Positions 24,697 to 42,088 are shown, numbered from the stretch's first letter. The stretch is 64,000 nt of DNA from Candidatus Woesearchaeota archaeon (GCA_018696595.1 JABHQW010000008.1:268522-332521), one strand, 5' to 3'. Numbers and translations are program-made. The notes: generated by a model from the sequence alone, not told the origin.

Positions 24697-25662
24697 ATGG
24701 GAAAACCACATAATCCAAGACGAGGAAGTATGCAATTTTGGCCTAGAAAAAGGTCTAGACACTCTTTAGCTAGAATTAGATCTTGGGCTGAAGAAGGCAA
24801 AACTAAACCTCTGGGTTTTATTGGTTATAAAGCAGGAATGACTCATTTGTTGGTTAATGACAACCGGCCGAAATCGTCCACAAAAGGAGAAAAGATTTCT
24901 ATGCCTGTAACTGTTATTGAATGCCCACCAATGATTATGATTGGAGTTTCTTTCTACAAAAAATCTTTATTTGGAGTTCAAAAATCAACTTCTGTTTTGG
25001 CTACAAAAATACCTAAAGAAGTTTCCAGAAAAATTCAATTACCTAAAAAAATCACTAAAAAATTCGACGAAATCAAAGAATTTGACGATTTACGATTATT
25101 ATTTGTATCCACTCCAAATTTAACTGGAACCGGAACGAAGAAACCCAAATTATTAGAAATTGCTTTAGGCGGTTCTAATGAAGACAAATTAGCTTTTGCT
25201 AAAGAGAATCTTGGTAAGGAAGTTAAAGTTGCAGATGTTTTTGACAGCGGTAAACAAGTAGATGTTCATGGAATTACTAAGGGAAAAGGTTTCCAAGGAA
25301 CTGTTAAAAGATTTGGTGTTCCTATTAGACAACACAAATCCGAGAAAACTAAACGAGGAATTGGTAACTTGGGAGCTTGGACACCTAAAAGAGTTGACTT
25401 TAGAGTGCCTCAACCAGGTAAAATGGGATTCCACCTAAGAACCGAATATAATAAACAAATCATTAAAGTTGATAATAATGCAGCGGAAGTTAATCCTACT
25501 GGTGGATTTCAACAATATGGCTTAATCAAAAATGACTATCTATTATTAAAGGGATCTGTATCAGGTCCTAGGAAAGGTGCAATTGTATTAACAGCATCAA
25601 TCCGTGCAAACAAAAAAATAACTAAAGAAGCACCAGGAGTTGCTTACATCCATAAAAAATGA
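24697..25662 (+). CDS. rpl3: Ribosomal protein uL3
   Basis: MGKPHNPRRGSMQFWPRKRS and conserved L3 core. Confidence 0.95.
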   Translation: MGKPHNPRRGSMQFWPRKRSRHSLARIRSWAEEGKTKPLGFIGYKAGMTHLLVNDNRPKSSTKGEKISMPVTVIECPPMIMIGVSFYKKSLFGVQKSTSVLATKIPKEVSRKIQLPKKITKKFDEIKEFDDLRLLFVSTPNLTGTGTKKPKLLEIALGGSNEDKLAFAKENLGKEVKVADVFDSGKQVDVHGITKGKGFQGTVKRFGVPIRQHKSEKTKRGIGNLGAWTPKRVDFRVPQPGKMGFHLRTEYNKQIIKVDNNAAEVNPTGGFQQYGLIKNDYLLLKGSVSGPRKGAIVLTASIRANKKITKEAPGVAYIHKK

Positions 25663-26465
25663 AAATACCAATCTTAAGTCTGGATCAGAAAAAAACAAGT
25701 GAGAAAGAATTACCTAATCAGTTCTCCGAATCTTATCGTCCAGATCTAATTAAAAGAGCAGTTCACGCTTTACAATCAGCGGCTAGACAAGCTTACGGAG
25801 CTAAACCTGACGCAGGTATGAGACATTCTTCTGATTTAAGTAAAAGAAGAAGAAAATATCGGGGCTGTTACGGATTTGGAATCAGTAGAGTTAATCGAAA
25901 GATCTTAAGCCGAAGAGGAACTCGAATGCATTGGGTTGGAACATTTTCCCCACAAACTGTTGGTGGAAGAAGATCTCACCCTCCTAAAGCTGATAAGATT
26001 TTTGAAAAAGATATTAATAAAAAAGAAAACAGAAAAGCAATTCGATCAGCAATCGCTGCTACAATTGATAAAGAGCTTGTTCAAGGACGAGGTCATAAAG
26101 TACCTGAAAGTTATCCATTCATTATTGATTCATCTCTAGAAAAAACAGACAAAACCAAAGATGTTCAAACAATCTTGTTAAATCTTGGTTTTAAAGATGA
26201 ATTATCTCGATCATTAATTAAAAAAGTAAGAGCAGGACTTGGAAAAGTTCGAGGAAGAAAATATCAAAGAAAGAAAGGAATCTTGATTGTTGTAGGGGAA
26301 GATTGTTCTTTACTAAAGGCTGCTAATAATATATCTGGAATAGATGTAGTTAAGGTTAATGCTTTGAATGCAGAATTATTAGCTCCTGGGGCAATGCCTG
26401 GAAGAGTAACTTTATGGACTGAAAACGCAATCAATATCTTAGAAAAAGATAAACTATTCAACTAA
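25659..26465 (+). CDS. rpl4: Ribosomal protein uL4
   Basis: Archaeal L4/L1e blocks. Position after L3. Confidence 0.9.
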   Translation: MKIPILSLDQKKTSEKELPNQFSESYRPDLIKRAVHALQSAARQAYGAKPDAGMRHSSDLSKRRRKYRGCYGFGISRVNRKILSRRGTRMHWVGTFSPQTVGGRRSHPPKADKIFEKDINKKENRKAIRSAIAATIDKELVQGRGHKVPESYPFIIDSSLEKTDKTKDVQTILLNLGFKDELSRSLIKKVRAGLGKVRGRKYQRKKGILIVVGEDCSLLKAANNISGIDVVKVNALNAELLAPGAMPGRVTLWTENAINILEKDKLFN

Positions 26466-26485
26466 TCAAATAAATTCAAACAAAA

Positions 26486-26818
26486 ATGGCAAAAAAAACC
26501 GAAATCAAAGGAACTGAAACTCAAGAAGTGAAGGAGAATGTTAAGGCAGTTAAAGACTTTAACCCTCATGAGATTATCAAATATCCTTTATCTACTGAAA
26601 GAAGTATTCGTCAAATTGAGTTTGAAAATAGATTATCTTTTGTTGTTCATTCAAGAGCAACTAAAGGAGATATTAAAAGAGCGGTTGAAGAATTGTTCAA
26701 AGTAAGAGTTGTTAAAATTAATGTTCAAAATTCATTCACTGGGGAAAAGAAAGCTTACGTTAAACTAGGGCCAGAAAGTGTGGCTGCTGATGTAAGTGCA
26801 GACTTAGGATTAATTTAG
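26486..26818 (+). CDS. rpl23: Ribosomal protein uL23
   Basis: KGDIKRAVEELFKVRVVKINV is L23-like. Operon position. Confidence 0.9.
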   Translation: MAKKTEIKGTETQEVKENVKAVKDFNPHEIIKYPLSTERSIRQIEFENRLSFVVHSRATKGDIKRAVEELFKVRVVKINVQNSFTGEKKAYVKLGPESVAADVSADLGLI

Positions 26819-26826
26819 GTATAAAA

Positions 26827-27528
26827 ATGGGTAAACGAATCATACAACAAAGGCGAGGAAGAGGAACTGGCGCATATCGTGCACCTAGTTTTAATTACCA
26901 AGGTAAAGTTGTCCATAATAATTTAGACACTTCCGGTACTGTTGTAGATATTATTCATTGTGCTGGTCATAGTGCTCCATTAATAGAAGTACAATATTTG
27001 ACTGGAAATAAAAGTTTAGCCTTTGCTCCTGAAAAAATTAAAGTTGGAGATTCAATTATTGTTGGTGGCGAAGAAATTAAGTCTGGAAACGTATTACGAT
27101 TAAAAAATGTTCCCGAAGGAACTTTAGTTCATAATTTAGAATTAAGACCTGGAGACGGTGGAAAATTAGTTCGAGCAAGTGGAAGTTTTGCTAAAGTTGT
27201 AGCAAAGACTGAAAAAGCTATCAGAGTTAAATTACCTTCAAATAAAGAAAAATTATTTTTACCTGAATGTCGAGCATCTATTGGAATTATTGCTGGTGGT
27301 GGAAGATTAGAAAAACCTTTAATGAAAGCAGGAAACAGATTCCATAAAATGAAGGCAAGAAACAAATTATATCCGAAAGTATGCGGAATCTCTATGAATG
27401 CGGTGGACCATCCATTTGGTGGATGTCACAGTACTCATAAAGGAAGACCTACTTTATCTCCAAGAAGCGCACCACCTGGAAGAAAGGTTGGTAAGATTGC
27501 TCCTAGAAGAACAGGTAGGAGAAAATAA
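26827..27528 (+). CDS. rpl2: Ribosomal protein uL2
   Basis: L2 core with SAPLIEVQY, GGGRLEKPLMKAGN and HKGRP. Confidence 0.95.
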   Translation: MGKRIIQQRRGRGTGAYRAPSFNYQGKVVHNNLDTSGTVVDIIHCAGHSAPLIEVQYLTGNKSLAFAPEKIKVGDSIIVGGEEIKSGNVLRLKNVPEGTLVHNLELRPGDGGKLVRASGSFAKVVAKTEKAIRVKLPSNKEKLFLPECRASIGIIAGGGRLEKPLMKAGNRFHKMKARNKLYPKVCGISMNAVDHPFGGCHSTHKGRPTLSPRSAPPGRKVGKIAPRRTGRRK

Positions 27529-27573
27529 AATAAAAATAAAATAATATTAAAATATAAACTAAAAAAATAAAAA

Positions 27574-27954
27574 ATGGCAAAAGAATTAACTTGGCACGGA
27601 AAAAGTGAACAGGAAGTAAAGGAAATGGACATTAAGGAGTTCATGAAAGTAATTCCTACTAGACAAAGAAGATCTTTGAAAAGAGGATTTACTGACGCAC
27701 AAAAAGCTTTAATGAAACTTATTGAAGCTGATAGTCAGAATATTAAAACCCATTGCCGAGATTTGGTAATTATGCCAATCATGTTAGGAAAAATGATTAA
27801 AGTGTATAATGGAAAAGACTTTTTCCCGGTTACAGTTACATTAGAAATGTTAGGACATTATTTGGGGGAATTTTCACAAACCCGAAAGAGTGTAACTCAT
27901 AGTTCGGCTGGAGTTGGAGCAACAAGATCAAGTAAAGCTGTTTCAGCAAGATAA
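27574..27954 (+). CDS. rps19: Ribosomal protein uS19
   Basis: GKMIKVYNGKDFFPVTVTLEMLGHYLGEFSQTRK is the S19 signature. Confidence 0.9.
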   Translation: MAKELTWHGKSEQEVKEMDIKEFMKVIPTRQRRSLKRGFTDAQKALMKLIEADSQNIKTHCRDLVIMPIMLGKMIKVYNGKDFFPVTVTLEMLGHYLGEFSQTRKSVTHSSAGVGATRSSKAVSAR

Positions 27955-27977
27955 ATATAAAAAATAAAGATACAAAA

Positions 27978-28640
27978 ATGACACAAAAAACAAAAGTAGA
28001 AAAAAGTGAACACGTTGCTCGGGCTAAAGTAATTAGTGCGTCAATCTCTACTAAGCATTGTGTTGAAATTTGTAAATTTTTACGATACAAAAATACTGAT
28101 TTTGCTAAAGATTACTTAGAAAGTGTAATTGATTTGAAAAAACCAATTCCTTTCAAGAAGTTCAATAAAGATACTGGACATAAAGCAGGAATGGCTGCGG
28201 GAAGATTCCCTCAGAAAGCTGCTAAAGAGTTTTTGAAATTAATTAAGTCTGCTGAAGCTAATGCTCAGTTTAAAGGATTAAATACATCTGGATTAAAAAT
28301 CACTAAAATTTTAGCTAATAAGGCATCAATTCCGGCTACTGGCGGTCGACATAGAAGAGGAACAAAAAGATCTCATGTAGAAATGGAAGTTGAAGAAGTT
28401 GCTGTTAAAAAGAAGGAAGTTAAAAAGAAATCTTCAAAACCTGTTGCGAAGGAAGTAAAAGAAGAGAAGCAACCAGAAACTAAAGTAGAAGAGAAAGTTG
28501 CGGAAGTTAAAACTGAAGAAGTAGCAAAAGTTGAAGAAAAAGTTGAACTACCTAAAGAAGAAATTAAAGAAACTAATAATCAAGAAAATCAAGAAGCAAC
28601 TAAAGAAGCTGAAAAAGAAGTTGAGGAACAAAAAAAATGA
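27978..28640 (+). CDS. rpl22: Ribosomal protein uL22 with a K/E-rich C-terminal extension
   Basis: L22 core AKVISASISTKHCVEICKFL. Approximately 80-aa KEE tail. Confidence 0.9.
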   Translation: MTQKTKVEKSEHVARAKVISASISTKHCVEICKFLRYKNTDFAKDYLESVIDLKKPIPFKKFNKDTGHKAGMAAGRFPQKAAKEFLKLIKSAEANAQFKGLNTSGLKITKILANKASIPATGGRHRRGTKRSHVEMEVEEVAVKKKEVKKKSSKPVAKEVKEEKQPETKVEEKVAEVKTEEVAKVEEKVELPKEEIKETNNQENQEATKEAEKEVEEQKK

Positions 28641-29575
28641 TTGAGAGAGAATTCATCGCCCAAAAGACGAAAGAGTACTACATCAAGAAGCATATTGAGT
28701 CTAAGTTAGACAAAGTTGGAATTTCCTCAATCAAATTAAAAAAGATTCCTTTGGGAGAAAAGATTATTATTGAAACTAGTAGGCCTAGTTTAATTGTTGG
28801 ATCTAAAGGTTCTAACATCAGAGAACTTACTAAAACATTAAAGAAACAATTCAAATTAGAAAATCCACAAATTGAAATTAATGAAGTAAAAGACATTTTC
28901 CTTGACCCTCATATTGTTGCAGAAAGAATCTCTTCATCTTTAGAAAGATTTGGAGCAGCAAGATTCAAAGGTGTTGGTCATAAAACTATGGAGAATGTAA
29001 TGAACGCTGGCGCATTAGGTGTTGAAATAATTATTTCCGGAAAAATTCCAAGTTCTAGGGCAAAGAATTGGAGATTTTATTTAGGTTACTTAAAAAAGTG
29101 CGGAGACATTGCTATTCACGGAGTAAAGAGGGCACAAACTGTTGCTTTATTGAAAAGTGGAATTATTGGAATTAAGGTTGCAATTATGCCTTCCGATTTA
29201 GTATTACCTGATCATATTGAAATCTTAGACGAACCTCAACAAATTGTTGAAGAAACAGAAGTTGAGAAAAAACCAGCTAAGAAGAAAGCTACAAAGAAAA
29301 AAACTGCTACTAAAAAGAAACCAGCTAAGAAAAAAGAAGCTAAGGTTGAAGAAGTTGCAAAAGTAGAAGAGAAAGTTGAAGAAAAAACTGAAGCGGTTGC
29401 AACTAAAGAAGTTAAAGAACCTGTTGTTGAAGAAACAGAAACAAAAACAAAAGAAGAAGTTACTGAAAAAACTCCTAATCAAGAAACCGTTCCTGAAGAA
29501 TCTGAGAAGAAAGAAACAGAACAAAAAGAAGAAACTAAAGAAGAAACTAAAGAAGAGGAACCTAAGCAAGAATGA
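28637..29575 (+). CDS. rps3: Ribosomal protein uS3 with a long K/E-rich C-terminal tail
   Basis: KH domain LIVGSKGSNIRELTK. S3 C-domain. Approximately 110-aa tail. Confidence 0.9.
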   Translation: MIEREFIAQKTKEYYIKKHIESKLDKVGISSIKLKKIPLGEKIIIETSRPSLIVGSKGSNIRELTKTLKKQFKLENPQIEINEVKDIFLDPHIVAERISSSLERFGAARFKGVGHKTMENVMNAGALGVEIIISGKIPSSRAKNWRFYLGYLKKCGDIAIHGVKRAQTVALLKSGIIGIKVAIMPSDLVLPDHIEILDEPQQIVEETEVEKKPAKKKATKKKTATKKKPAKKKEAKVEEVAKVEEKVEEKTEAVATKEVKEPVVEETETKTKEEVTEKTPNQETVPEESEKKETEQKEETKEETKEEEPKQE

Positions 29576-29775
29576 AAATCACTAAAGAATTAAGGGAATT
29601 ATCTCCTGAAGAACTGAACACAAGAATGGCTGAGTTTAGAACAGAATTACTTAAGTTAAGTGTTGAAGTTGCTAGTGGAGCAAACCCTTCCAGTCCTGGA
29701 AAGATCAAGCAAGTGAAAAAGAATGTTGCAAGAATATTAACCTTACTCAAAGAGAAAGAGAAGGGGGTTAACTAA
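29572..29775 (+). CDS. rpl29: Ribosomal protein uL29
   Basis: LRELSPEELNTRMAEFRTELLKL is an L29 motif. Confidence 0.9.
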   Translation: MKITKELRELSPEELNTRMAEFRTELLKLSVEVASGANPSSPGKIKQVKKNVARILTLLKEKEKGVN

Positions 29776-29781
29776 AAAAAT

Positions 29782-30087
29782 ATGGTAGGTGTATGTAATC
29801 AATGTGGGCTACCACAAGACCTTTGCGTTTGTGAAACAATCGCACGGGAACAACAAAAAATCAAAGTGTTTATCGAGAAAAGAAAATTTGGCAAGAAGTA
29901 TACCATCATCACTGGGGTTGGCAAGGAAGCTAACATTGATGAAATACTTAAAACCTTAAAAACCAAGTTTGCTTGTGGCGGGACTGCTAAAAACGGTCAA
30001 ATGGAACTACAAGGCAACCACAAGTTGAGAATCAAACAAACTTTAGTGGATCTGGGTTTTGCTGAAGAAACAATCGAGATTGCTTAA
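29782..30087 (+). CDS. Translation initiation factor SUI1 (aSUI1/eIF1)
   Basis: SUI1 fold motifs KRKFGKKYTIITGV...FACGGT. Expected position in the archaeal cluster. Confidence 0.85.
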   Translation: MVGVCNQCGLPQDLCVCETIAREQQKIKVFIEKRKFGKKYTIITGVGKEANIDEILKTLKTKFACGGTAKNGQMELQGNHKLRIKQTLVDLGFAEETIEIA

Positions 30088-30091
30088 TCAG

Positions 30092-30343
30092 ATGAAAAAA
30101 ACAATTTATCCTAACGAACTGGTTGGGGAAGAAATTGAAATCATTGAAGCAAAAAACACTTACAACTTATCAATCAAAGGCAAGGTTGTTGACGAAACAA
30201 AAACAACTTTGAAAGTTGAACAAAACGGTAAGTTTAAAACGTTATTGAAAAATAACATCACAATCAAGTTGATCAAGTCTGGAAAAATCATCTCCGGGCA
30301 AGAGATTGCTAAGCGACCAGAAGAACGGTTGAAAGGCAGATAA
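30092..30343 (+). CDS. rnp1: RNase P protein subunit Rpp29 (Pop4)
   Basis: ELVGEEIEIIEAKNTYNLSIKGKVVDETKTTL matches the Rpp29 Sm-like core. Start moved to the ATG after the SUI1 stop. Confidence 0.75.
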   Translation: MKKTIYPNELVGEEIEIIEAKNTYNLSIKGKVVDETKTTLKVEQNGKFKTLLKNNITIKLIKSGKIISGQEIAKRPEERLKGR

Positions 30344-30369
30344 AAACAATCAAAAAACTGAAACGAAAA

Positions 30370-30717
30370 ATGAAAAAAGAAATACTTGGTGCAAAAGCAC
30401 CTGGAAAGGAATGTACTGACCAAAAATGTCCATTTCATGGGCAGATTAATGTAAAGAATGAACTATTCAAAGGAACAGTTGTTAAGAAAGACATTAATCA
30501 CTCTGCTACAATTGAATGGAGTAGACAACATTATGTTCCTAAATTTGAAAGATATGAAGTTAGGCGTAGTAGAATGAGAGTTCATAACCCTGCTTGTATC
30601 GATGCAAATATTGGTCAAACCGTTTTAGTTGCCAAAACTCGACCAATCAGTAAGACAAAAAATCATGTTATTATCAAAATCATTGAAGCTGAAGAATCTA
30701 AGGGGACTAAGAAATAA
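30370..30717 (+). CDS. rps17: Ribosomal protein uS17
   Basis: S17 OB-fold motifs. Position. Confidence 0.9.
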   Translation: MKKEILGAKAPGKECTDQKCPFHGQINVKNELFKGTVVKKDINHSATIEWSRQHYVPKFERYEVRRSRMRVHNPACIDANIGQTVLVAKTRPISKTKNHVIIKIIEAEESKGTKK

Positions 30718-30719
30718 AA

Positions 30720-31121
30720 ATGAAAGCACTAAGCAGTAAAATAACAAAAGCACTACCTTCACAATGTCAATTAGGTACTTGTGATAACTCTGGTGCTAAG
30801 TTAATAAAAATAATTGCAGTAAAAGGACATAAGACTGTTAAAGGTAGAATTCCTGCTGCTGGTGTTGGCGATTTAGTTTTTGCTTCAGTTAAGAAAGGAA
30901 AATTAGAAATGAGAAAAACTGTTGTTCCTGCGGTAATTGTTAGACAAAAGAAAGAATACCGAAGAGCTGACGGAACTCGAATTAAATTTGAAGATAATGC
31001 AGCAGTTGTGTTAAAAGATCTTAAAGGAAACCCAAAGGGAACAATCTTTAAAGGTCCAATTGCTAAAGAAGCGGCAGAAAGATGGCCAGCAGTAGCTAAA
31101 GTGGCTAAAATAATTGTTTAA
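30720..31121 (+). CDS. rpl14: Ribosomal protein uL14
   Basis: CDNSGAKLIKII...GVGDLV is L14-like. Confidence 0.9.
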   Translation: MKALSSKITKALPSQCQLGTCDNSGAKLIKIIAVKGHKTVKGRIPAAGVGDLVFASVKKGKLEMRKTVVPAVIVRQKKEYRRADGTRIKFEDNAAVVLKDLKGNPKGTIFKGPIAKEAAERWPAVAKVAKIIV

Positions 31122-31130
31122 GGTTAAAAA

Positions 31131-31586
31131 ATGGTAAAAACAAGTTTTGCAAAAACATGGAATAAAAGTACTCAACCTAGAAAGCAACGTAAGTATAGGT
31201 ATAATGCTCCATTACATGTTAAACAAAAAATGGTACATGTTCATTTATCTACAGAATTAAGAAAGAAGTACAGTTTCAGAAATGTACAACTTAAAGCTGG
31301 AGATAAAATTAAAGTTTTACGTGGTAAGTTTGCTAAGAAAGAAGGTAAAGTGGACAAAATCAGTTTAAAAAATGAAAAAGTTTACGTGGCTGGTATTGAA
31401 ACTATCAAGAAGGAAGGAACAAAATTACCTATTGCATTAAATGCAACCAACTTAATGATTATTGAATTAGACTTGAGTGATAAAAAAAGAAAACAGAAAT
31501 TAGAAAGCAAAGGTAAGACTGAACCTAAAGCTGAAGTTAAATCTGAATCAAAAAAAGTAGAATCAAAAGTAGAGGAAAAGAAATAA
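31131..31586 (+). CDS. rpl24: Ribosomal protein uL24 (KOW) with a K-rich tail
   Basis: KOW GDKIKVLRGKFAKKEGKV. Confidence 0.9.
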   Translation: MVKTSFAKTWNKSTQPRKQRKYRYNAPLHVKQKMVHVHLSTELRKKYSFRNVQLKAGDKIKVLRGKFAKKEGKVDKISLKNEKVYVAGIETIKKEGTKLPIALNATNLMIIELDLSDKKRKQKLESKGKTEPKAEVKSESKKVESKVEEKK

Positions 31587-31587
31587 A

Positions 31588-32274
31588 ATGAAAAATCACT
31601 TGAAAAGAATCGCATCCCCTCATACCTGGGTTATTGATCGGAAAAGTTCCGTTTTTATTACTAGGCCTAAACCTGGAGCTCATAAAATGGGTAGTGGTTT
31701 ACCACTTGGTGTTATTTTAAGAGACTTTTTAGGATTATCTACTACTATGAATGAATCAAAGAAAGTGCTTAACAATAATGATATCTTAGTTGATGGAAAA
31801 AGAAGAAAAGATTATCGTTACATTGTTGGTTTATTTGATGTGATTACTATTCCAATTCAAAAGAAATCTTTCAGATTAATGTTTAATAAGAAAAAACAAA
31901 TTGTTATCAACGAAATTAGTGATACAGAAAGTTTAATTAAACCTTGTAAAGTTGTAGGTAAGACCATCTTAACAAAAGGAAAGATACAATTAAACTTACA
32001 TGATGGTAAGAATATCATTAGTGATACTAAAGTTAAAGTTGGGGATACCTTATTATTATCATTACCAAAATTAGAAGTTAAAGAAGTGTTACCTCTTGAA
32101 AAAGAAAGTACAGTTTACTTAATTGATGGAAAACATTGCGGTGATGTTGGATTATTCAAAGAAATTAGAAAAGAAGAAGCAATTTATACTAAAGATAAAA
32201 AAGATATCGAAACTGCAAAAGAATATTTATTTGTAGTGGGCAAAAAAAAATCAATGATTGAAATTAAAAATTAA
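31588..32274 (+). CDS. rps4e: Ribosomal protein eS4
   Basis: MKNHLKRIASPHTWVIDRKSSVFITRPKPGAH is S4e-like. Confidence 0.9.
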   Translation: MKNHLKRIASPHTWVIDRKSSVFITRPKPGAHKMGSGLPLGVILRDFLGLSTTMNESKKVLNNNDILVDGKRRKDYRYIVGLFDVITIPIQKKSFRLMFNKKKQIVINEISDTESLIKPCKVVGKTILTKGKIQLNLHDGKNIISDTKVKVGDTLLLSLPKLEVKEVLPLEKESTVYLIDGKHCGDVGLFKEIRKEEAIYTKDKKDIETAKEYLFVVGKKKSMIEIKN

Positions 32275-32282
32275 CTGAAAAA

Positions 32283-32798
32283 ATGGAAAAAAACAATAAC
32301 CCAATGATGGAAATTAGAATTAGCAAAGTTACCTTAAATATTGGTGCAGGTAAGAACGAAGATTTGCTAAAGAAAGGTATTGTTTTACTGAAAAAGTTAT
32401 CACCTTTAACTCCTGTTAAAACTTTTACTCAGAAAAGAATTCCTGGTTGGGGATTAAGACCTGGCTTAGCAATTGGTTGTAAAGTAACTGTTCGTAAAAA
32501 CACTGAAGAATTACTTAAAAGATTGTTAGTGGCTAAAGAAAATATATTAAAAGAAAAATGTTTTGATAATAATGGAAACTTTTCTTTTGGAGTTCCCGAA
32601 TATATTGATATTGAAGGATTAGAATACGACCCAGATTTAAAGATTCTGGGCTTAGAAGCAGCAGTAACTTTGGAAAGACCAGGATTTAGAATTAAGAAAA
32701 GAAAAATTTCCAATAAAGCAGTTGGTAAAGATCATTTAATCACTAAAGAAGAAGCAATCGAGTTTGTGAAGAGCAAACTTGGTGTGGAGGTTGAGTAA
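32283..32798 (+). CDS. rpl5: Ribosomal protein uL5
   Basis: L5 blocks. Position. Confidence 0.9.
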
Positions 32799-32803
32799 AC
32801 AAA

Positions 32804-33034
32804 ATGACTACTAGTGACTATAAAAAAGCATTCAAACAACTGAACGCTAAACCAATTAAAAAATTAAAGTATATCAAGTTTAATCAACCTAAAGAGCGAT
32901 CTTGTGGAAGAGCTTTGAGAAAATGTCGGAACTGTGGCCGGAATGGTGGCCATATTAACAAATATGGTTTACATTTGTGTCGACAATGTTTCCGAGAAAT
33001 GGCTTTAGGATTAGGTTTCAAAAAATACAGTTAA
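32804..33034 (+). CDS. rps14: Ribosomal protein uS14 (zinc-binding type)
   Basis: [25 protein letters not shown]. Confidence 0.85.
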
Positions 33035-33057
33035 GAATAAGAGGATAAATTAAGAAA

Positions 33058-33447
33058 ATGTTAAACGACCCATTGGCAGCAACGTTAGCGAAAATAATGA
33101 ACGCAGAGAAAGTAGGAAAGAAGAATGTAGTTGTTAAACCGGCCTCTAAGATAATTAAAAAGATCTTGGCAATGATGAACGAGAATAATTACACTGGCGA
33201 AGCTACAGAAATTACTTCAGAGCGAGGTGGAGAACTGAATGTTAACCTATTAGGCAACCTTAATGGTTGTGGTGTAATCAAACCAAGATTTTCAACTAAA
33301 CAAAATGGATTTGAGAAATGGGAGAAACGTTACTTACCAGCTAATAACTTTGGATTACTTTTTGTTTCAACCCCAAAAGGAATCATGACTCAAGATCAAG
33401 CTAAAGAGAAAAAGATGGGCGGAAAACTATTAGCCTATTGTTATTAA
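33058..33447 (+). CDS. rps8: Ribosomal protein uS8
   Basis: MLNDPLAATLAKIMNAEKVGKK is S8-like. Confidence 0.9.
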   Translation: MLNDPLAATLAKIMNAEKVGKKNVVVKPASKIIKKILAMMNENNYTGEATEITSERGGELNVNLLGNLNGCGVIKPRFSTKQNGFEKWEKRYLPANNFGLLFVSTPKGIMTQDQAKEKKMGGKLLAYCY

Positions 33448-33469
33448 TCATACTAAACAGAAAACAAAA

Positions 33470-34015
33470 ATGAAAGCAGACTTAAAAAAAGAAATTGAAC
33501 TTCCTGACGGAGTGACTGTACAGTTGAATGGGGCAGTTTTAACTATAAAAGGAGCTAAAGGAGAAGTTAATAGGGATTTTATTCATCCTAAAGCAAATAT
33601 TTTAGTTGAACAAAATAAAATTGTTTTGTCTGCTTTGAAAGCAACTAAAAGAGAAAAAACATTATTAGGAACAATGGTCTCTCATATTAAGAATATGATT
33701 ACTGGTGTACAAGAACCTTTTACTTACAAAGTTAAAATTTGTTCTGGTCACTTTCCAATGAATGTAAGTGTTTCAGGTAAAGATTTAGTTGTTAAAAACT
33801 TTTTGGGAGAAAGTGTCCCTAGAAAAGTTGAATTAATTGAAGGAACAAATGTTAAAGTTAACGGTGATGAGATTGTTATTGTTGGCGTAGATAAAGAAAA
33901 AGCTGGACAAATGGCAGCAAGAATTGAAAACCTATGTCGAATTACTAATCGTGATACTAGAATATTCCAAGATGGATGTTATATCACCCATAAAGCTGGA
34001 AAAGATTTAAACTAA
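33470..34015 (+). CDS. rpl6: Ribosomal protein uL6
   Basis: Two-domain L6 pattern. Position. Confidence 0.9.
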   Translation: MKADLKKEIELPDGVTVQLNGAVLTIKGAKGEVNRDFIHPKANILVEQNKIVLSALKATKREKTLLGTMVSHIKNMITGVQEPFTYKVKICSGHFPMNVSVSGKDLVVKNFLGESVPRKVELIEGTNVKVNGDEIVIVGVDKEKAGQMAARIENLCRITNRDTRIFQDGCYITHKAGKDLN

Positions 34016-34045
34016 ACATAATAAAGATATAATAAAGGCAATAAG

Positions 34046-34666
34046 ATGGAAACTAAAAAAATGTTAGAAGTACGGGAAAAAATTCGGAAAACTAGACCTA
34101 AATTCGTAGTTAAGGAATCTAAGTTTTCAGCGCGAGTAAAGAGTAGATGGCGTTTCCCTAGGGGTAAACATTCAAAAGTTAGACAAATGCATAAAGGAAG
34201 ACCATTATTAGTTAATGTTGGAAGTAGATCTCCTCGACTTGTAAGAGGATTAAACAAAGTGGGATTAGAAATTGTTGCTGTTAGTAATAAAAATGAATTG
34301 TTAAGTTTGAATAAAGAAAAACAATCTGCTTTGTTAACAAACATTGGTAATAAAAAAAGATTAGAATTATTAGAATTAGCTAAAGAAAACAAGATCCATT
34401 TATCTAATGTTAAAGATATTGAAAAAACTGTTGAGAAAATCAAATCTAGCTTCGATGCAAGAAAAAAGTTGAAATCAGACAAATCTCAGGCGAAGAATAA
34501 AAAAGAAACAGAAAAGAAGAAGAACGCTGAAGAGAAAAAGAAAAAGGAAGAAGAAGAGAAAATAAAAGCTGAAAAGAAATCTATCGAAGAAACTGTTGAA
34601 GATAAAAAGGAAAAGATTAAAGAAGAGAAGAAAGAGTCGGAAAAGACCATCATTAAAAAACAATAA
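34046..34666 (+). CDS. rpl32e: Ribosomal protein eL32 with a K/E-rich tail
   Basis: RPKFVVKESKFSARVKSRWRFPRGKHSKVR is L32e-like. Approximately 70-aa tail. Confidence 0.9.
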   Translation: METKKMLEVREKIRKTRPKFVVKESKFSARVKSRWRFPRGKHSKVRQMHKGRPLLVNVGSRSPRLVRGLNKVGLEIVAVSNKNELLSLNKEKQSALLTNIGNKKRLELLELAKENKIHLSNVKDIEKTVEKIKSSFDARKKLKSDKSQAKNKKETEKKKNAEEKKKKEEEEKIKAEKKSIEETVEDKKEKIKEEKKESEKTIIKKQ

Positions 34667-34699
34667 TCAAAAATATAATAACTAAACATAACGATAAAA

Positions 34700-35149
34700 A
34701 TGAAAAGCAAAAAAAGACTGGCTGGAGAAATCCTGAAAGTATCACCAAAGAAGATTAGTTTTGTAGCTGATGCTTTAGAAGATATTAAGAAAGCAATTAC
34801 TCGGTCAGATTTAAGAGGATTAATTGCTATTAAGAAGATTGTTAAAAGTAGAAAAAATCAACAATCTCGTGCAAGAGCAAGAAAAATAGCAACTCAGAAA
34901 AGAAAAGGTCGACAAAAGGGTCAAGGTAGCAAAAAAGGAGCTAAACATGCAACCGTAACCAAGAAAGAAAAATGGATGGCTAAAGTAAGAATTCAAAGAA
35001 GACTGTTAAAAGAATTAAGAGATAAGAAATTAATTTCAACCGGTAATTACCGATTACTTTATCGTAAAGTTAAAGGTGGTTTTTTTAGAAATAAGAGACA
35101 CATTAAACTTTATTTAACTGAATATCATTTGATTGAGGAAAAAAAATAA
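34700..35149 (+). CDS. rpl19e: Ribosomal protein eL19
   Basis: MKSKKRLAGEILKVSPKKISF...RKGRQKGQG is L19e-like. Confidence 0.9.
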   Translation: MKSKKRLAGEILKVSPKKISFVADALEDIKKAITRSDLRGLIAIKKIVKSRKNQQSRARARKIATQKRKGRQKGQGSKKGAKHATVTKKEKWMAKVRIQRRLLKELRDKKLISTGNYRLLYRKVKGGFFRNKRHIKLYLTEYHLIEEKK

Positions 35150-35156
35150 TTAAACA

Positions 35157-35663
35157 ATGGCAACTAAAAAACCAAAAACAATTCCTTATAGAAGGAAAAG
35201 AGAAGGAAAAACTAACTATACCAAAAGGTTAAAGTTATTACTTTCAAAGAAACCAAGATTGGTTGTAAGATTAACAAATACTCAGGTTATTGCTCAGTTA
35301 ATAGAATTCTCTAGTGAAGGAGACAAAGTTTTAGTTAGTGTTGATTCTTCTACATTAAAGAACATGGGTTGGAATCATTCTTTTAAGAATCGATCTGCTG
35401 CTTATTTGGCTGGTCTTTTATTAGGAAAGAAAGCTGTAGAAAAGAAATTGGAAGGAGCAGTTTTAGACACAGGATTCAAATTATTAATGAAGAAAGGCAA
35501 GTTAACTGCTTTCCTTAAGGGAGTAATTGATTCAGGATTTACTGTTCCTTACGGAAGTGAAGAAATCTTCCCTGATGAAGAAACTATTGCAGGTAAACAT
35601 ATTATTAATCAAGAAAAGATTACTGAAGAATTTAATCAAGTTAAAGCAAAGATAATGGGATAA
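35157..35663 (+). CDS. rpl18: Ribosomal protein uL18
   Basis: PYRRKREGKTNYTKRLKLL...RLVVRLTNTQVIAQL is L18/L5e-like. Confidence 0.9.
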   Translation: MATKKPKTIPYRRKREGKTNYTKRLKLLLSKKPRLVVRLTNTQVIAQLIEFSSEGDKVLVSVDSSTLKNMGWNHSFKNRSAAYLAGLLLGKKAVEKKLEGAVLDTGFKLLMKKGKLTAFLKGVIDSGFTVPYGSEEIFPDEETIAGKHIINQEKITEEFNQVKAKIMG

Positions 35664-35671
35664 TACTAAAA

Positions 35672-36718
35672 ATGGCTGAAGAAAAAACAAAATCTGCTGG
35701 AAATGCAAGAAATACAGGGAATGCAAGAAATGCTGGAAATGCAAGAAACGCAAGAAATCCTAGGAATTCAAGAAATACAAAGAATGCACGGTATTCTAGA
35801 CCCAGAGAAGAACCTCGGCCACTTTCAGAAACTTGGACACCTAAGACTCAATTAGGAATCGAAGTAAAGAAGGGCGAAGTTACAGATATTGAACAGATTT
35901 TTGCTCAAGGAAAAATGATTCTGGAAGCAGAGATTGTTGATATGCTTTTACCAAACCTGGAAGACGAGTTATTATTAGTTGGACAAGCTAAAGGTAAATT
36001 TGGCGGTGGTCAAAGAAGAATTTTTAGACAAACCCAAAAGAAAACTAAAGAAGGAAATAAAATTCACTTTTTAACTTATGCAGCTGTTGGAAACAAAAAT
36101 GGCTATGTTGGCGTTGGAACAGGAAAAAGTAAAGAAACAGTTCCCGCAAGAGACAAATCAAAACGTAAAGCTAAATTAAATTTAATGAGAGTTAGAAGAG
36201 GATGTGGAAGTTGGGAATGTAATTGTAAACAACCGCATTCAGTTCCATTTGCTAGCAGTGGTAAGTGTGGTTCCGTTGAAGTTACTTTAATGCCCGCTCC
36301 GAAAGGAAAAGGACTTTGTGTAGAAAAAGAATGTGCAAAGATTTTAGAGTTAGCTGGGATCAAAGATGTTTGGAGTAGAACATCTGGACAAACTAAAGTT
36401 AAAGTTAATCTAATTGCGGCATTAATGGATGCTATTAAGAATTTATCTCAAGTTAAACTTAAACCAGGTGATATTGAAAAGTTAGGAATTGTTGAAGGTA
36501 AAATGAAATCTGACGACGAAGAACTCCCTACTGTTGCTGTTGAAGCGGACTCAGAAACCGAAGTGGCTGAAGAGAAAACTGAAGAAGTTGCTGTTGAAGA
36601 AGCAAAAGAAGAAGAGAAGGTAGAAGTTAAAGAAGAAAAGACTCCTGATCAAGCTGAACTAACTGAAGCGGAAGCAGATTCAGAAGCAAGTGAAGAAGAG
36701 AAAGAGGAATCAAGTTAA
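35672..36718 (+). CDS. rps5: Ribosomal protein uS5 with an N-terminal GNARN tandem repeat and an acidic C-terminal tail
   Basis: S5 dsRBD and C-domain, with GKFGGGQRR and VGVGTGKSKETVPA. Cys cluster GCGSWECNCKQPH. Confidence 0.9.
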   Translation: MAEEKTKSAGNARNTGNARNAGNARNARNPRNSRNTKNARYSRPREEPRPLSETWTPKTQLGIEVKKGEVTDIEQIFAQGKMILEAEIVDMLLPNLEDELLLVGQAKGKFGGGQRRIFRQTQKKTKEGNKIHFLTYAAVGNKNGYVGVGTGKSKETVPARDKSKRKAKLNLMRVRRGCGSWECNCKQPHSVPFASSGKCGSVEVTLMPAPKGKGLCVEKECAKILELAGIKDVWSRTSGQTKVKVNLIAALMDAIKNLSQVKLKPGDIEKLGIVEGKMKSDDEELPTVAVEADSETEVAEEKTEEVAVEEAKEEEKVEVKEEKTPDQAELTEAEADSEASEEEKEESS

Positions 36719-36719
36719 A

Positions 36720-37244
36720 ATGACTCAAGAAGAAAAAGTTCAAACAACTGAACCTAAGACTGAAGTTAAAACTGAAGTTAAGAAAGAAGCTAGTGTTAAG
36801 GAGACTCCTAAAAATACTAGTGGAAAGATAGCAATAGTTTTAGTTCGTGGAATTGTTGGATTACCTCAACCAGTTAAAGACACATTATTTTTACTTAATA
36901 TAAACAGAAAAAATCATTGCGTTGTTGTTAAAAACAGTCCCGTTAATTTGGGTATGATCAAGAAAGTAAAAGATTATGTTACTTGGGGAGAAATCTCTGA
37001 TGATGTATATAATCAGTTAGTTGAGAAACGTGGAGAAGAATACGAAGGAAGATTATCTGATAGCAAAAAGAAGTATAATTATAAAACGTTAGACATCAAT
37101 GGTAAAAAATATAAAAGATATTTCAGATTAAATCCGCCAAGAAAAGGTTTCGGCCGAAAAGGTATAAAGATTGCTTTCAAAGTTGGTGGAGGATTAGGAG
37201 ATAGAAAGGAAAAGATGAATGATCTGATCCTAAGAATGTTATAA
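36720..37244 (+). CDS. rpl30: Ribosomal protein uL30
   Basis: IAIVLVRGIVGLPQPVKDTLFLLNINRKNHCVVV is L30/L7e-like. Start placed at the ATG after the rps5 stop. Confidence 0.85.
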   Translation: MTQEEKVQTTEPKTEVKTEVKKEASVKETPKNTSGKIAIVLVRGIVGLPQPVKDTLFLLNINRKNHCVVVKNSPVNLGMIKKVKDYVTWGEISDDVYNQLVEKRGEEYEGRLSDSKKKYNYKTLDINGKKYKRYFRLNPPRKGFGRKGIKIAFKVGGGLGDRKEKMNDLILRML

Positions 37245-37264
37245 TTATTTAAGGAAATAAAAAA

Positions 37265-37750
37265 ATGGTAACTAATAAAGCAAAAAAAGTAACTAAGTAC
37301 AGAAGTCATACTACTCATGGCGGCGGTCATCGTAAGAAAAGACGTGGCGCTGGTTCCCGAGGAGGAAGAGGAAATGCAGGTACTGGTAAAAGAGCAGGAC
37401 AGAAGAAAGCAGGTATCTCTCGAAAGTTAGGGAAACATGGATTTACTAGTAAAAGTAGAACTAGAGTAAGATCTATTAATGTTAACTATTTTACTGAAAA
37501 AGTTATGGAAAAGTTGGTTGCTAATAACAAAGTTAAAAAAGAGGGAGAACTTTACATTATTAATCTGGCCGATTTAGGTTATCAGAAACTACTTGGAACG
37601 GGTCAAACTAAATTTAAACTTAAGTTATCTGTTGCTAAGTTCACCGCAAAGGCAGAAGAAAAAATCAAATCTGCAGGTGGAGAAATAGTTTTTGGTACCG
37701 TTGAAGAAACTAAAAAAGCAATTAAAGAAGAAAACAAAACTCAATCTTAA
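37265..37750 (+). CDS. rpl15: Ribosomal protein uL15
   Basis: HTTHGGGHRKKRRGAGSRGGRGNAGTGKR is L15-like. Confidence 0.9.
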   Translation: MVTNKAKKVTKYRSHTTHGGGHRKKRRGAGSRGGRGNAGTGKRAGQKKAGISRKLGKHGFTSKSRTRVRSINVNYFTEKVMEKLVANNKVKKEGELYIINLADLGYQKLLGTGQTKFKLKLSVAKFTAKAEEKIKSAGGEIVFGTVEETKKAIKEENKTQS

Positions 37751-37752
37751 AA

Positions 37753-39177
37753 ATGTCTATCTTAGATACAATTAGTAGGTACTTACCAGAGGTAAGAGGA
37801 CCGAAACAAAAAAGATTACCATTTAAAGAGAAACTAAAATGGACTTTGGTTGTTCTGGTTATTTTTTATGTGATGGGAATGATTCCATTATTTGGGTTAG
37901 GTAAAAACGCTTTATCTCAATTTGAATTTTTATCAATTATTTTAGGTGCATCTTTTGGAAGTATTATTTCTTTAGGAATTGGTCCGATTGTTACTGCATC
38001 TATTGTATTACAATTATTGTCGGGAACGGGAATATTAAACATGGACATGACTACTACTGAAGGTAGGCAAAGGTTCCAAGGGTTACAAAAGATTTTGGCA
38101 ATCTTCTTTATTGTTTTTGAAGCAATAATTTATGTCGCTATGGGTGGTTTAGCTCCTAGTGATGCTTTCATGGGGACACCAATATTTTTTCAGTTAGAAA
38201 TGTTGTTAATGTTCCAGTTAATTCTAGGTGGAATTGTAATTATGTTTTTGGACGAAGTTATTAGTAAATGGGGTTTTGGTTCTGGTATTTCGTTATTTAT
38301 TGCGGGTGGAGTAGCTCAGCAAATTTTAATTAGGTTACTTAGTCCTTTCACTGCTAGTGGAATTCAAGGAGGAGCAGTTGGATTGGGATACCCTTTTGGG
38401 ATAGAACCAGCTTCTGGAAAGATCTGGGAAATATTTTATGCTTTAAGTCAGAATGATTTACAATTGTTTGGATTGGCATTCGCTTCTATATTAGCTACGG
38501 TGATTGTATTCTTAATTTGCGTTTATGGGCAAGCAATGAAAGTTGAGATCCCGTTATCTTTTGGAAAAGTACGTGGTTACGGAATGAGATGGCCATTAAA
38601 TTTCTTTTATACATCTAACATTCCGGTTATTTTAGTTGCTGCACTGATGGCAAACATACAATTAGTAGCTAGTTTACTGGAGAAGTGGGGTCATCCTTGG
38701 TTTGGAACTTTTTCTGGAAACACGCCAGTTAGTGGTTTAGTTTATTGGGTACATTCTCCTGACATTTTACAGAATGTTATTAAAGGAAGTTTTGTTTGGA
38801 GTATGTTGGGACAAGCAGCAATTTATATTATCATTTTTATTTTAGGTTCAGTGTTGTTTTCTGTATTTTGGATGCAGACTGCTAACATGGATGCTAAGAG
38901 TCAAGCTAAACAGATATTATCTTCTGGTTTACAGATCCCTGGTTTTAGAAGGGATGAACGGGTTTTGGAAAGGATTCTGAAAAGGTACATTTGGCCATTA
39001 ACTATTGTCGGTGGAGCAGCTATTGGATTATTAGCAGCACTTGCTGATTTGACTGGTGCATTATCGCGAGGAACTGGTATTTTATTAGCTGTTATGATTG
39101 TCTATAAGTTGTATGAAGAAATTGCTAAGCAACATATGATGGACATGCATCCTGCTATGAGAAAGTTCATGGAGTGA
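37753..39177 (+). CDS. secY: Preprotein translocase SecY
   Basis: 10-TM topology. SecY motifs. Position after rpl15. Confidence 0.95.
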   Translation: MSILDTISRYLPEVRGPKQKRLPFKEKLKWTLVVLVIFYVMGMIPLFGLGKNALSQFEFLSIILGASFGSIISLGIGPIVTASIVLQLLSGTGILNMDMTTTEGRQRFQGLQKILAIFFIVFEAIIYVAMGGLAPSDAFMGTPIFFQLEMLLMFQLILGGIVIMFLDEVISKWGFGSGISLFIAGGVAQQILIRLLSPFTASGIQGGAVGLGYPFGIEPASGKIWEIFYALSQNDLQLFGLAFASILATVIVFLICVYGQAMKVEIPLSFGKVRGYGMRWPLNFFYTSNIPVILVAALMANIQLVASLLEKWGHPWFGTFSGNTPVSGLVYWVHSPDILQNVIKGSFVWSMLGQAAIYIIIFILGSVLFSVFWMQTANMDAKSQAKQILSSGLQIPGFRRDERVLERILKRYIWPLTIVGGAAIGLLAALADLTGALSRGTGILLAVMIVYKLYEEIAKQHMMDMHPAMRKFME

Positions 39178-41384: not shown

Positions 41385-41660
41385 ATGCCAAGAGGAATGC
41401 ATAAATCGAGAACATTAAGACAAGTATTCGTTAAAACTCCCGGTGGAAAGACTGTAAAACATTTCAGAAGAAGAAAACCATCTAAGACAATTTGCGGATC
41501 TTGTAAAAAAGAATTAAAGGGAGTACCTAAAGATATCCCTTCAAAAGTGAGAGCAATACCAAAATCTGCAAGACGACCAGAGCGACCTTATGGTGGCGTA
41601 TTTTGTTCAGCTTGTACTAGAAAGTTATTACAACAAAAGGCTAGGGAGGGAGAAAAATGA
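41385..41660 (+). CDS. rpl34e: Ribosomal protein eL34
   Basis: MPRGMHKSRTLRQVFVKTPGGK...CGSC is L34e-like. Confidence 0.9.
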   Translation: MPRGMHKSRTLRQVFVKTPGGKTVKHFRRRKPSKTICGSCKKELKGVPKDIPSKVRAIPKSARRPERPYGGVFCSACTRKLLQQKAREGEK

Positions 41661-42088
41661 GTTTATTCCAAGTAGGACGATTAGCAGTGAAAATCGCAGG
41701 CCGTGACGCAGGAAGAAAGTGCGTAATTGTTGAACTAATTGATCAGAATTTTGCAGTTATTGATGGTGATGTAAGAAGGAAAAAAGTTAACCTTAGACAT
41801 TTAGAACCGTTAACACAAACTGTTGATCTTAAAGACAAAGCTTCTCATGATGAAGTTAAGAAAGCTTTTGAAAAGTTGGAATTACCGGTTTGGGAAAAGA
41901 AAAGTAAAACTCCAGCCCCAAGAGTAAAGAAGACTAAAAAAGTTAAGGCAAAACCCGCTACAGAGAAAAAGGTTAAGAAAGAAACTAAGAAAGAAGAGAA
42001 AACTGTAGAAAAGAAGGAAGTGCCTAAGACCGAAGAGAAGCCTGTTGAGAAGCCAGTAGAAGAAAAAGCTGCAGAGAAGAAAGAGTAA
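41657..42088 (+). CDS. rpl14e: Ribosomal protein eL14 (KOW) with a K/E-rich tail
   Basis: VGRLAVKIAGRDAGRKCVIVELID is L14e-like. Confidence 0.85.
   Translation: MSLFQVGRLAVKIAGRDAGRKCVIVELIDQNFAVIDGDVRRKKVNLRHLEPLTQTVDLKDKASHDEVKKAFEKLELPVWEKKSKTPAPRVKKTKKVKAKPATEKKVKKETKKEEKTVEKKEVPKTEEKPVEKPVEEKAAEKKE

Follow-up and report, generated by a model that had tools for sequence, protein, structure and literature searches.

We analysed a 64,000-nucleotide window (the whole stretch of DNA, of which positions 27,978 to 36,718 are shown above) from a Candidatus Woesearchaeota archaeon (GCA_018696595.1, JABHQW010000008.1:268522-332521) and detected long charged extensions on seven ribosomal proteins, uL22, uS3, uL24, eL32, uS5, eL14 and eS1, all encoded on the + strand and confirmed by Pfam. 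These are very probably genuine, translated and lineage-conserved terminal extensions of a specific subset of ribosomal proteins, and they fall into three structural classes, the uS3, uL22 and eL32 types. They represent a lineage-specific and unusually extensive instance of a known habit of ribosomal proteins, and no new kind of system. An earlier note on this DNA had claimed K/E-rich extensions on the same seven proteins, which was borne out, each of them in-frame, by alignment to chains from solved archaeal ribosomes. The lengths given there agree for uL22 (about 80 aa; 79 found), uS3 (about 110; about 107 found) and the acidic tail of uS5 (about 65; 70 found), but not for eL32 (about 70; 85 measured). 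The borders between core and tail were set by Pfam and by alignment to chains of the Pyrococcus, Thermococcus, Methanocaldococcus, Sulfolobus, Haloarcula, Methanosarcina and Pyrobaculum ribosomes.

The seven C-terminal tails hold 477 residues combined, with a charged-residue fraction of 0.54-0.65. Their composition is K 0.10-0.38 and E 0.21-0.37, with K at 25-38% in six of the seven, the exception being the uS5 C-tail (10% K). Stretches with K+E of at least 55% over 30 aa were detected in nine of the approximately 77 open reading frames (ORFs) of the window, and seven of these nine encode ribosomal proteins; the enrichment among the 25 ribosomal proteins of the window (Fisher odds ratio 9.7, p=0.004) shows that it exceeds chance. 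The window is low in GC (~31%), the coding strand of its long + strand gene block is strongly purine-skewed, and the purine content of tail DNA is 74% vs 60% for core DNA. Charged, disordered low complexity had been proposed for the tails in general. This description fits uS3, which is predicted to be disordered, and misses the conserved charge-block layout of uS3 and the conserved helical domain of eL32.

Several observations bear on whether the tails are real. Independent ENA, JGI and Logan assemblies contain at least 24 contigs that encode the exact 312-aa uS3, and the lengths of the neighbouring genes match as well. Among the top 120 database homologues of uS3, 120/120 are tailed (219-361 aa), and the top 120 homologues of eL32 all have 169-254 aa. 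In two close-strain comparisons of uL22 and uS3, 11/11 tail indels were multiples of 3. Tails and cores use much the same codons for K and E, and the start of the next gene abuts or overlaps the end of each tail ORF. The tail DNA is T-poor and all three forward frames are open (for instance, an alternative-frame ORF at 29376-29585); an open frame alone is therefore weak coding evidence, and the coding status of the tails follows from the frame-preserving indels and conservation.

The distribution of the tails was determined in 80 sister loci from GTDB species representatives (uS3-core identity 71-84%, at most 10 kb of flank each), where the sequence past the conserved core was measured for every operon protein and counted as a tail from 20 aa upwards. 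Tails of uL22 (21-272 aa, median 108) and uS3 (48-148 aa, median 83) are present in 80/80 sisters, and that of eL32 in 98%, with a length interquartile range (IQR) of 82-91 aa. Tails were less frequent on uL24 (54% of sisters, median 20 aa), uS17 (53%, median 21 aa), uL18 (44%, median 17 aa) and the uS5 C-terminus (32%, range 1-77 aa, median 10). None of the 80 sisters has a C-terminal tail on uL3, uL4, uL23, uL2, uS19, uL14, uL5, uS14, uS8, uL6, uL30, SecY, SUI1 or Rpp29. The tails are thus protein-specific, being order-wide for uL22, uS3 and eL32 and patchy elsewhere. The proposal of a lineage-wide expansion accordingly stands for uL22 (at least 21 aa), uS3 (at least 48 aa) and eL32, but not for uL24, and a long acidic uS5 tail is a minority feature, that of the window being unusual among the sisters. 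The pooled sister tails contain K at about 0.2-0.28, E at 0.12-0.26 and A at about 0.1, A climbing with GC.

The K/E tails of ~20 aa found on uS17 and uL18 in about half of the sisters are absent from the window copies, indicating that the set of tailed proteins differs by lineage. Many of the GTDB loci with 72-84% uS3-core identity (L007, L008, L010, L012-L014 and others) are titled 'uncultured Methanosarcinales archaeon' (bulk TPA_asm), which is almost certainly a mislabelled organism name.

The uS3 tail has a conserved order of charge blocks. Pyrococcus and Thermococcus uS3 have 209-210 aa, and alignment of the Pyrococcus protein (210 aa) to aa 202 places the end of the core near aa 202-205, leaving a ~107-aa tail. 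It begins with an acidic hinge (net charge per residue -0.23), continues with the polybasic block KKPAKKKATKKKTATKKKPAKKK and ends with an acidic distal part (about -0.19; -0.27 in the final 30 aa). The polybasic block was found in 74/80 sisters, at tail positions 11-30 and with a mean net charge per residue of +0.35 to +0.41. The number of K/R among the first 40 tail residues is 13.8 +/- 2.3 in the sisters, independent of tail length, while the acidic part grows with tail length (r=0.91). The order basic-proximal/acidic-distal occurs in 64/80 sisters vs 3/97 distant representatives with tails of at least 40 aa, and the net charge is under-dispersed among the sisters (SD 0.060 vs 0.065-0.089 for a random-sign null). 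AlphaFold2 (AF2) gave aa 206-312 a predicted local distance difference test (pLDDT) score of 34-41 and no secondary structure, predicting disorder. With a charged fraction of 0.58, net charge per residue of -0.04 and 6% Pro over the whole tail, together with the AF2 result, it classifies as an intrinsically disordered polyampholyte. A phmmer search of the tail against PDB sequences had no match.

One contig (L086, ENA ERZ27250158), compared with window positions 27978-29775, is 100% identical in uL22 and 99.3% in the uS3 core, and identity falls to 79% in the uS3 tail and 91% in uL29; the drop at the tail start resembles a recombination breakpoint or a strain-chimeric assembly junction. In another locus (L088, 976-1251), a 91-aa hydrophobic ORF lies between uS3 (255 aa) and uL29. 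It was considered as a split uS3 tail and rejected, being an unrelated small membrane protein.

The eL32 extension is conserved in both sequence and length across the sisters. Archaeal model proteins have 125-130 aa and the core ends at aa 121, leaving 85 aa. In the window the extension comprises an amphipathic start, a KKE..KKKNAEEKKKKEEEE block, a spacer and an EKTIIKKQ end; the sister consensus has an amphipathic VKDV...F..RK segment, an KKEEEKKKKAEEKKKKEE block, a short variable spacer and an EKTITK(R/K)Q end. Near-invariant residues are R139, K153, K157, K159, E199, K200 and K204, and net charge is again under-dispersed (SD 0.032 vs a random-sign null of 0.066-0.094). AF2 predicts one continuous helix over aa 125-203, with a pLDDT of 93-96 for aa 121-160. 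The 85 aa contain no Pro or Gly, the charged fraction is 0.65 and E+K make up 58%. The pairing of opposite charges at i to i+3/i+4 is +0.21 vs 0.00 +/- 0.09 in shuffles (z=+2.3), the only positive score, all other tails being negative. The tail may thus be a single alpha-helix (SAH) of the ER/K type, which would be monomeric and stable in solution. It resembles ER/K SAH domains in its E+K-rich composition, lack of helix breakers, pairing excess and predicted single helix, but differs from them in its conserved positions, its terminal motif and the lower AF2 confidence distally. Because these positions and the motif are conserved, binding contacts are suggested rather than a pure spacer. In a Foldseek search of the PDB, the eL32 model aligned solely with the cores of solved eL32 chains (134 alignment columns at most), and none of the solved eL32 structures has a comparable extension.

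In uL22, alignment to solved archaeal chains (150-156 aa) puts the core end near aa 141, followed by a 79-aa tail in which a basic segment precedes a near-neutral K/E/V/P linker. The charged fraction is 0.56, net charge per residue -0.03 and Pro 4%; by composition alone the tail would be a disordered polyampholyte. In 37/80 sisters uL22 is closed by a conserved module of ~48 aa, always within 1-15 residues of the C-terminus and preceded by a K/E/V/P linker of 42-215 aa. The consensus is ELSxEELLxxAQxKAAELNKKEK...LYEELQKKGTLR, also read as ELSSxELLxxAQxKAAELNKKEK...EEVxxLYExLQKKGTLR. The module occurs in loci L010, L011, L012, L016-L018, L022, L023 and L025-L027, among others, and is absent from uL22 of the window and of several near relatives; this patchiness suggests repeated loss. 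Elsewhere in the window tblastn detected only low-complexity noise, and two isolated modules scored no higher than noise in a Pfam scan. The module was sought, standalone or fused elsewhere, among 5.8 billion proteins by a word-indexed profile search that under-recalls (full-length uL22s were missed); this returned three matches, all of them uL22 C-termini directly upstream of uS3. In one sister locus (L089, 2-573), uL22 is called as two ORFs with a 4-nt overlap, the second of which corresponds exactly to the terminal module (58 aa); either a frameshift/assembly error or a real split would account for this.

The N-terminal extension of uS5, defined by alignment to T. kodakarensis uS5 (235 aa), contains a tandem repeat at 35700-35788 (9-nt period, 9.9 copies in Tandem Repeats Finder), encoding xRN. 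It is absent from 60 sister uS5 genes and confined to the window's own lineage. The repeat unit is (A/T/P/S)RN, GNARNTGNARNAGNARNARNPRNSRNTKNAR, and, containing Arg, it recalls the RG-rich N-terminus of eukaryotic uS5. The C-terminal tail of uS5 is the sole net-acidic tail (net charge per residue -0.34, 37% E). The N-extension of uL30 varies from 1 to 49 aa in sisters. For uL24, eL14 and eS1 the model archaeal proteins have 118-122, 81-103 and 198-208 aa, respectively, and a ~45-aa K/E tail was found on eL14 of one relative (51% core identity), the single relative recovered by the metagenome scan.

We propose the following organization. The tails would project from solvent-exposed termini of the ribosome, a location suggested by the homologous termini in solved ribosomes, and at least six of the seven C-terminal ones lie where eukaryotes extend too. 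In the uS3 type, an acidic hinge would lead into a conserved polybasic block and on to an acidic brush that is variable; disorder is predicted throughout. The uL22 type probably also takes in uL24, eL14, eS1, the uS5 C-terminus and the uL30 N-terminus as disordered K/E(/A/V/T/P) linkers of variable length; in the sisters with the terminal module, though not in the window's lineage, the uL22 linker would act as its tether. The eL32 type would be a length-constrained, ER/K-like single helix of ~85 aa in which basic positions and the terminal motif are conserved. Polybasic segments may contact rRNA or mRNA; uS3 is positioned at the mRNA entry channel. Acidic or mixed segments may serve as flexible tethers or form an electrostatic or entropic brush, and the eL32 helix may be a rigid spacer or surface strut presenting the terminal motif.

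Some points weigh against this interpretation. We know of no structural or functional data for DPANN ribosomes, and exposure and RNA contacts are taken from homologous ribosomes; translation of the tails is deduced from the way their sequences evolve. Shared ancestry means that the 80 sisters do not count as independent samples, which makes the dispersion and correlation statistics optimistic. Tails of the linker type differ greatly in length (uL22 21-272 aa; uS5 1-77 aa), down to sisters that are nearly tailless, a pattern consistent with weak or no constraint for a large part of the tail material. In eL32 the distal half of the predicted helix has a pLDDT of just 54-70, and AF2 is prone to drawing helices for K/E-rich sequence.

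The origin of the tails was analyzed by repeats and strain comparison. Nearly every tail contains in-frame repeats with periods of 9, 12, 15 or 24, including those at 28553-28620 in uL22, 29265-29344 in the uS3 block region (period 15), 36746-36781 in the uL30 N-extension (period 12) and 59678-59772 in eS1 (periods 12 and 24). In a strain with cores 88-93% identical, the tails are just ~69-70% identical in nucleotides, and uL22 has 213 vs 220 aa and uS3 304 vs 312 aa in a strain whose uS3 core is 99% identical. The tails change several-fold faster than the cores, by 3n indels; the distal part of uS3 diverges fastest between strains (69-79% nucleotide identity, all indels 3n). These in-frame repeats and the rapid 3n turnover indicate that the raw tail material comes from in-frame slippage or duplication of purine-rich codon repeats. 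Presence, frame and charge layout are kept through this turnover, plus sequence and length for eL32. The tails persist over a GC range of 29-52% in the sister loci, and their length correlates weakly with GC for uS3 (rho=-0.25) and not significantly for uL22 and eL32, so AT bias was rejected as the cause. It was accepted as a modifier of composition from K to A, the uS3 tail showing rho of -0.58 with GC for K and +0.71 for A.

The tails could on this basis be regarded as a neutral by-product, in which slippage of AAR/GAR repeats adds functionless junk at tolerant termini in the highly expressed, AT-rich, purine-loaded genes of small-population symbionts. Tandem repeats in most tails, fast turnover of sequence and length between strains, a strong purine skew of the coding strand and the shift from K to A with rising GC agree with this view, as do the very wide lengths, down to near-tailless sisters (uL22 21-32 aa; uS5 median 10 aa). 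However, such a process would not be expected to keep the uS3 and uL22 tails in every species and that of eL32 in nearly all, to keep the uS3 charge-block order in sisters and rarely elsewhere, to hold the size of the polybasic block independent of tail length or to conserve sequence, length and terminal motif in eL32. Tail length is also nearly GC-independent, and ~477 extra residues on very abundant proteins would be costly for a streamlined genome. Neutral slippage probably explains the origin of the variable linker material and leaves universal retention, the conserved layouts and eL32 unexplained; as a full account of the tails it is unlikely.

A further possibility, to which we give a similarly low probability, is that the eL32 helix with its EKTITKRQ end and the uL22 leash with its module are functional tethered docking elements and not passive charged brushes, by analogy with the P-stalk of the ribosome and its conserved C-terminal peptide. 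The uL22 protein lies at the solvent face of the large subunit, with a hairpin lining the exit tunnel, and its partner might therefore be a nascent-chain, membrane-targeting or hibernation factor. If this docking role is true, these elements would be order-specific additions to the archaeal translation apparatus.

To trace uS3 tails beyond the order, the uS3 core was searched exhaustively against 1.84 billion cluster representatives, yielding 111 full-length proteins at 33-63% identity. Tails of at least 40 aa are present in 87% of these (median 83), and among the 97 representatives that carry them 69 are mixed K plus D/E and eight are halophile-like. The uS3 chain of the solved M. acetivorans ribosome has 318 aa; the paper on that structure does not discuss the uS3 tail. 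Long charged uS3 tails are thus common in archaea, and the short uS3 of Thermococcales and Sulfolobales is not representative. The claim that such tails are absent from model archaeal orthologues is correct for most solved chains and fails for uS3.

These data bear on the suggestion that the tails compensate for reduced rRNA or missing ribosomal proteins of a reduced DPANN ribosome, or mediate host-symbiont interactions. DPANN genomes are indeed reduced, and polybasic blocks could stand in for RNA-RNA or protein-RNA contacts; against this, charged uS3 tails are found in most of the distant representatives, and the free-living methanogen M. acetivorans, far beyond the order, has a long uS3 as well; this makes a symbiosis-specific role less likely, and direct host contact is hard to picture for cytoplasmic ribosomes. 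We consider both versions very improbable. Frameshift, misassembly or a missed stop, with true proteins of normal length, would be compatible with the open frames of T-poor DNA and is effectively refuted by the identical uS3 in many independent assemblies and samples, the tails in 80 species-level genomes and the 120 best homologues, the 3n indels between strains and the downstream genes that begin exactly where the tails end, which disposes of the refuting possibility named by the earlier note.

Genuine, conserved extensions of this kind can be compared with several known systems. Ribosomal proteins of bacteria and archaea often carry low-complexity regions (LCRs), mostly C-terminal and A/E/K-dominated, which orthologues retain and which were inferred to occupy the surface of the ribosome; archaeal S3 is one of the carriers (Ntountoumi et al., NAR 2019, PMC6821194). 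This survey covered 102 mostly cultured archaeal genera with very stringent criteria and an average LCR of ~36 aa. The tails described here are similar in their location on ribosomal proteins, mainly C-terminal, in A/E/K dominance, in retention among orthologues (uL22, uS3, eL32; partly uL24 and uS5) and in the shift of sister-tail composition from K/E to K/E/A with GC. They differ in that at least eight proteins in one 64-kb window carry extensions, of 24-107 aa, and in that the eL32 extension is a conserved helical domain, hardly of low complexity.

Eukaryote-specific extensions of uL22/L17, uS3, uL24/L26, eL14, eS1 and uS5/S2 share their termini with six of the seven C-terminal tails, as judged by chain lengths and alignment ends, and for eukaryotic eL14 and uL22 the alignment reaches into the tail regions. 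The eukaryotic extension sequences have no detectable homology to the tails, and most of them are ordered, lying on rRNA expansion segments, while disorder is predicted for the majority of the tails here; eukaryotic eL32 lacks such a C-terminal extension. The shared termini are read as probable structural permissiveness, not homology. The isolated eL32, uL22 and uS3 tails gave nothing above noise against Pfam.

H1-like K-rich extensions are also known from insect ribosomal proteins, e.g., mosquito RpL23a and RpS6 (cited in PMC11764897), and from DNA/RNA-binding proteins. Repeats of K/A/T/P in this style make up the uS3 block KKPAKKKATKKKTATKKKPAKKK and, in the membrane protein encoded at 2245-2895, the tail. 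In uS3, however, such sequence is limited to a short stretch (~23 aa) with a long acidic segment behind it, forming a near-neutral block polyampholyte. Haloarchaeal ribosomal proteins likewise have long charged terminal extensions on uS3 and eL32 (H. marismortui eL32 has 240 aa), and D/E-rich uS3 tails of this type occur among the distant representatives. The haloarchaeal tails are D/E-rich and almost K-free, a composition that none of the tails here shows, K being much higher outside the uS5 C-tail. The literature searched contains no account of these tails in Woesearchaeota/DPANN, nor of the eL32 helix or the uL22 module.

DPANN archaea are usually discussed in terms of loss. The operon shows the opposite for a defined subset of ribosomal proteins, with the C-terminal residues counted above plus roughly 75 N-terminal ones (uS5, uL30), in order-specific conserved layouts and with six of seven tails at termini that eukaryotes likewise extended. 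Two candidate elements for ribosome functions specific to the lineage are the helix of eL32 and the module that ends uL22 in sisters. Short-tailed model archaea are suggested to be unrepresentative of archaeal uS3 diversity, and the tails, which lengthen ribosomal proteins, can disturb marker-gene alignment and trimming in DPANN phylogenomics.

The ribosomal genes of the window, their extensions and two further extended proteins are collected in Table 1.

Table 1. Coordinates of the genes and extensions in the 64,000-nt window
Feature	Position	Strand	Basis or remark
Small membrane protein	2245-2895	-	sub-threshold DUF4131 match
KaiC-family ATPase	8887-10095	-	Pfam PF06745, aa 160-392
S10-spc ribosomal-protein operon, canonical archaeal, uL3 to SecY	24697-39177	+	includes SUI1 and RNase P Rpp29
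uL22 gene, 220 aa	27978..28640	+	Pfam Ribosomal_L22, aa 20-134
uL22 C-terminal tail, aa 142-220, K/E/V/P linker type	28401..28637	+	
uS3 gene, 312 aa	28637..29575	+	Pfam KH_2 + Ribosomal_S3_C
uS3 polybasic block, aa 211-233, KKPAKKKATKKKTATKKKPAKKK	29267..29335	+	charge profile
uS3 distal acidic/mixed segment (predicted brush), aa 234-312	29336..29572	+	net charge, AF2
uL24 C-terminal tail, aa 128-151, 24 aa	31512..31583	+	core aligned to aa 127
eL32 gene, 206 aa	34046..34666	+	Pfam Ribosomal_L32e, aa 18-121
eL32 C-terminal extension (predicted helical), aa 122-206	34409..34663	+	AF2, conservation
eL32 terminal motif EKTIIKKQ	34640-34663	+	
uS5 N-terminal extension, aa 1-41	35672..35794	+	core from ~aa 42
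uS5 acidic C-terminal tail, aa 279-348, 70 aa	36506..36715	+	
uL30 N-terminal K/E/T/V extension, ~35 aa	36720..36824	+	Pfam L30 domain from ~36 aa into the ATG-start protein
eL34 + eL14 genes	41385-42088	+ (eL14)	
eL14 C-terminal tail, aa 83-143, ~60 aa	41903..42085	+	core aligned to ~aa 82
eS1 gene	59048-59785	+	
eS1 C-terminal tail, aa 195-245, ~50 aa	59630..59782	+	core aligned to ~aa 191-194

Similar tails had also been claimed for the KaiC-like ATPase and for a PH-domain membrane protein. The extensions exist and are basic instead of K/E-mixed. The KaiC-family ATPase has a K-rich, seemingly disordered N-terminal extension of ~155 aa. The C-terminal ~65 aa of the membrane protein are purely polybasic and H1-like (KKKTVKKKTVKKKAVKKRVVKKKATKKKTVKRKPAKKK...), with tandem repeats at 2303-2413; Pfam matched no PH domain in this protein, and that assignment is not upheld. 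Its polybasic tail resembles the uS3 polybasic block.

The top homologues carry the names Candidatus Woesearchaeota, Nanoarchaeota or Nanoarchaeia, and the NCBI taxonomy places Woesearchaeota in the kingdom Nanobdellati (DPANN group). Scans of the window for tRNA and Rfam RNAs had no match, hence it contains no rRNA. Two K/E/Q-rich, coiled-coil-like proteins of no Pfam family are encoded on the - strand, at 10101-11990 (629 aa) and 60411-62138 (575 aa), and the gene for the 629-aa protein is the immediate upstream neighbour of the KaiC-like gene, in the same orientation. Within the operon, uS14 (32804-33034, 76 aa) and uL23 (26486-26818, 110 aa) appear N-terminally longer than the usual archaeal orthologues; the N-extension of uL23 has ~26 aa and is length-conserved among the sisters (IQR 23-28).

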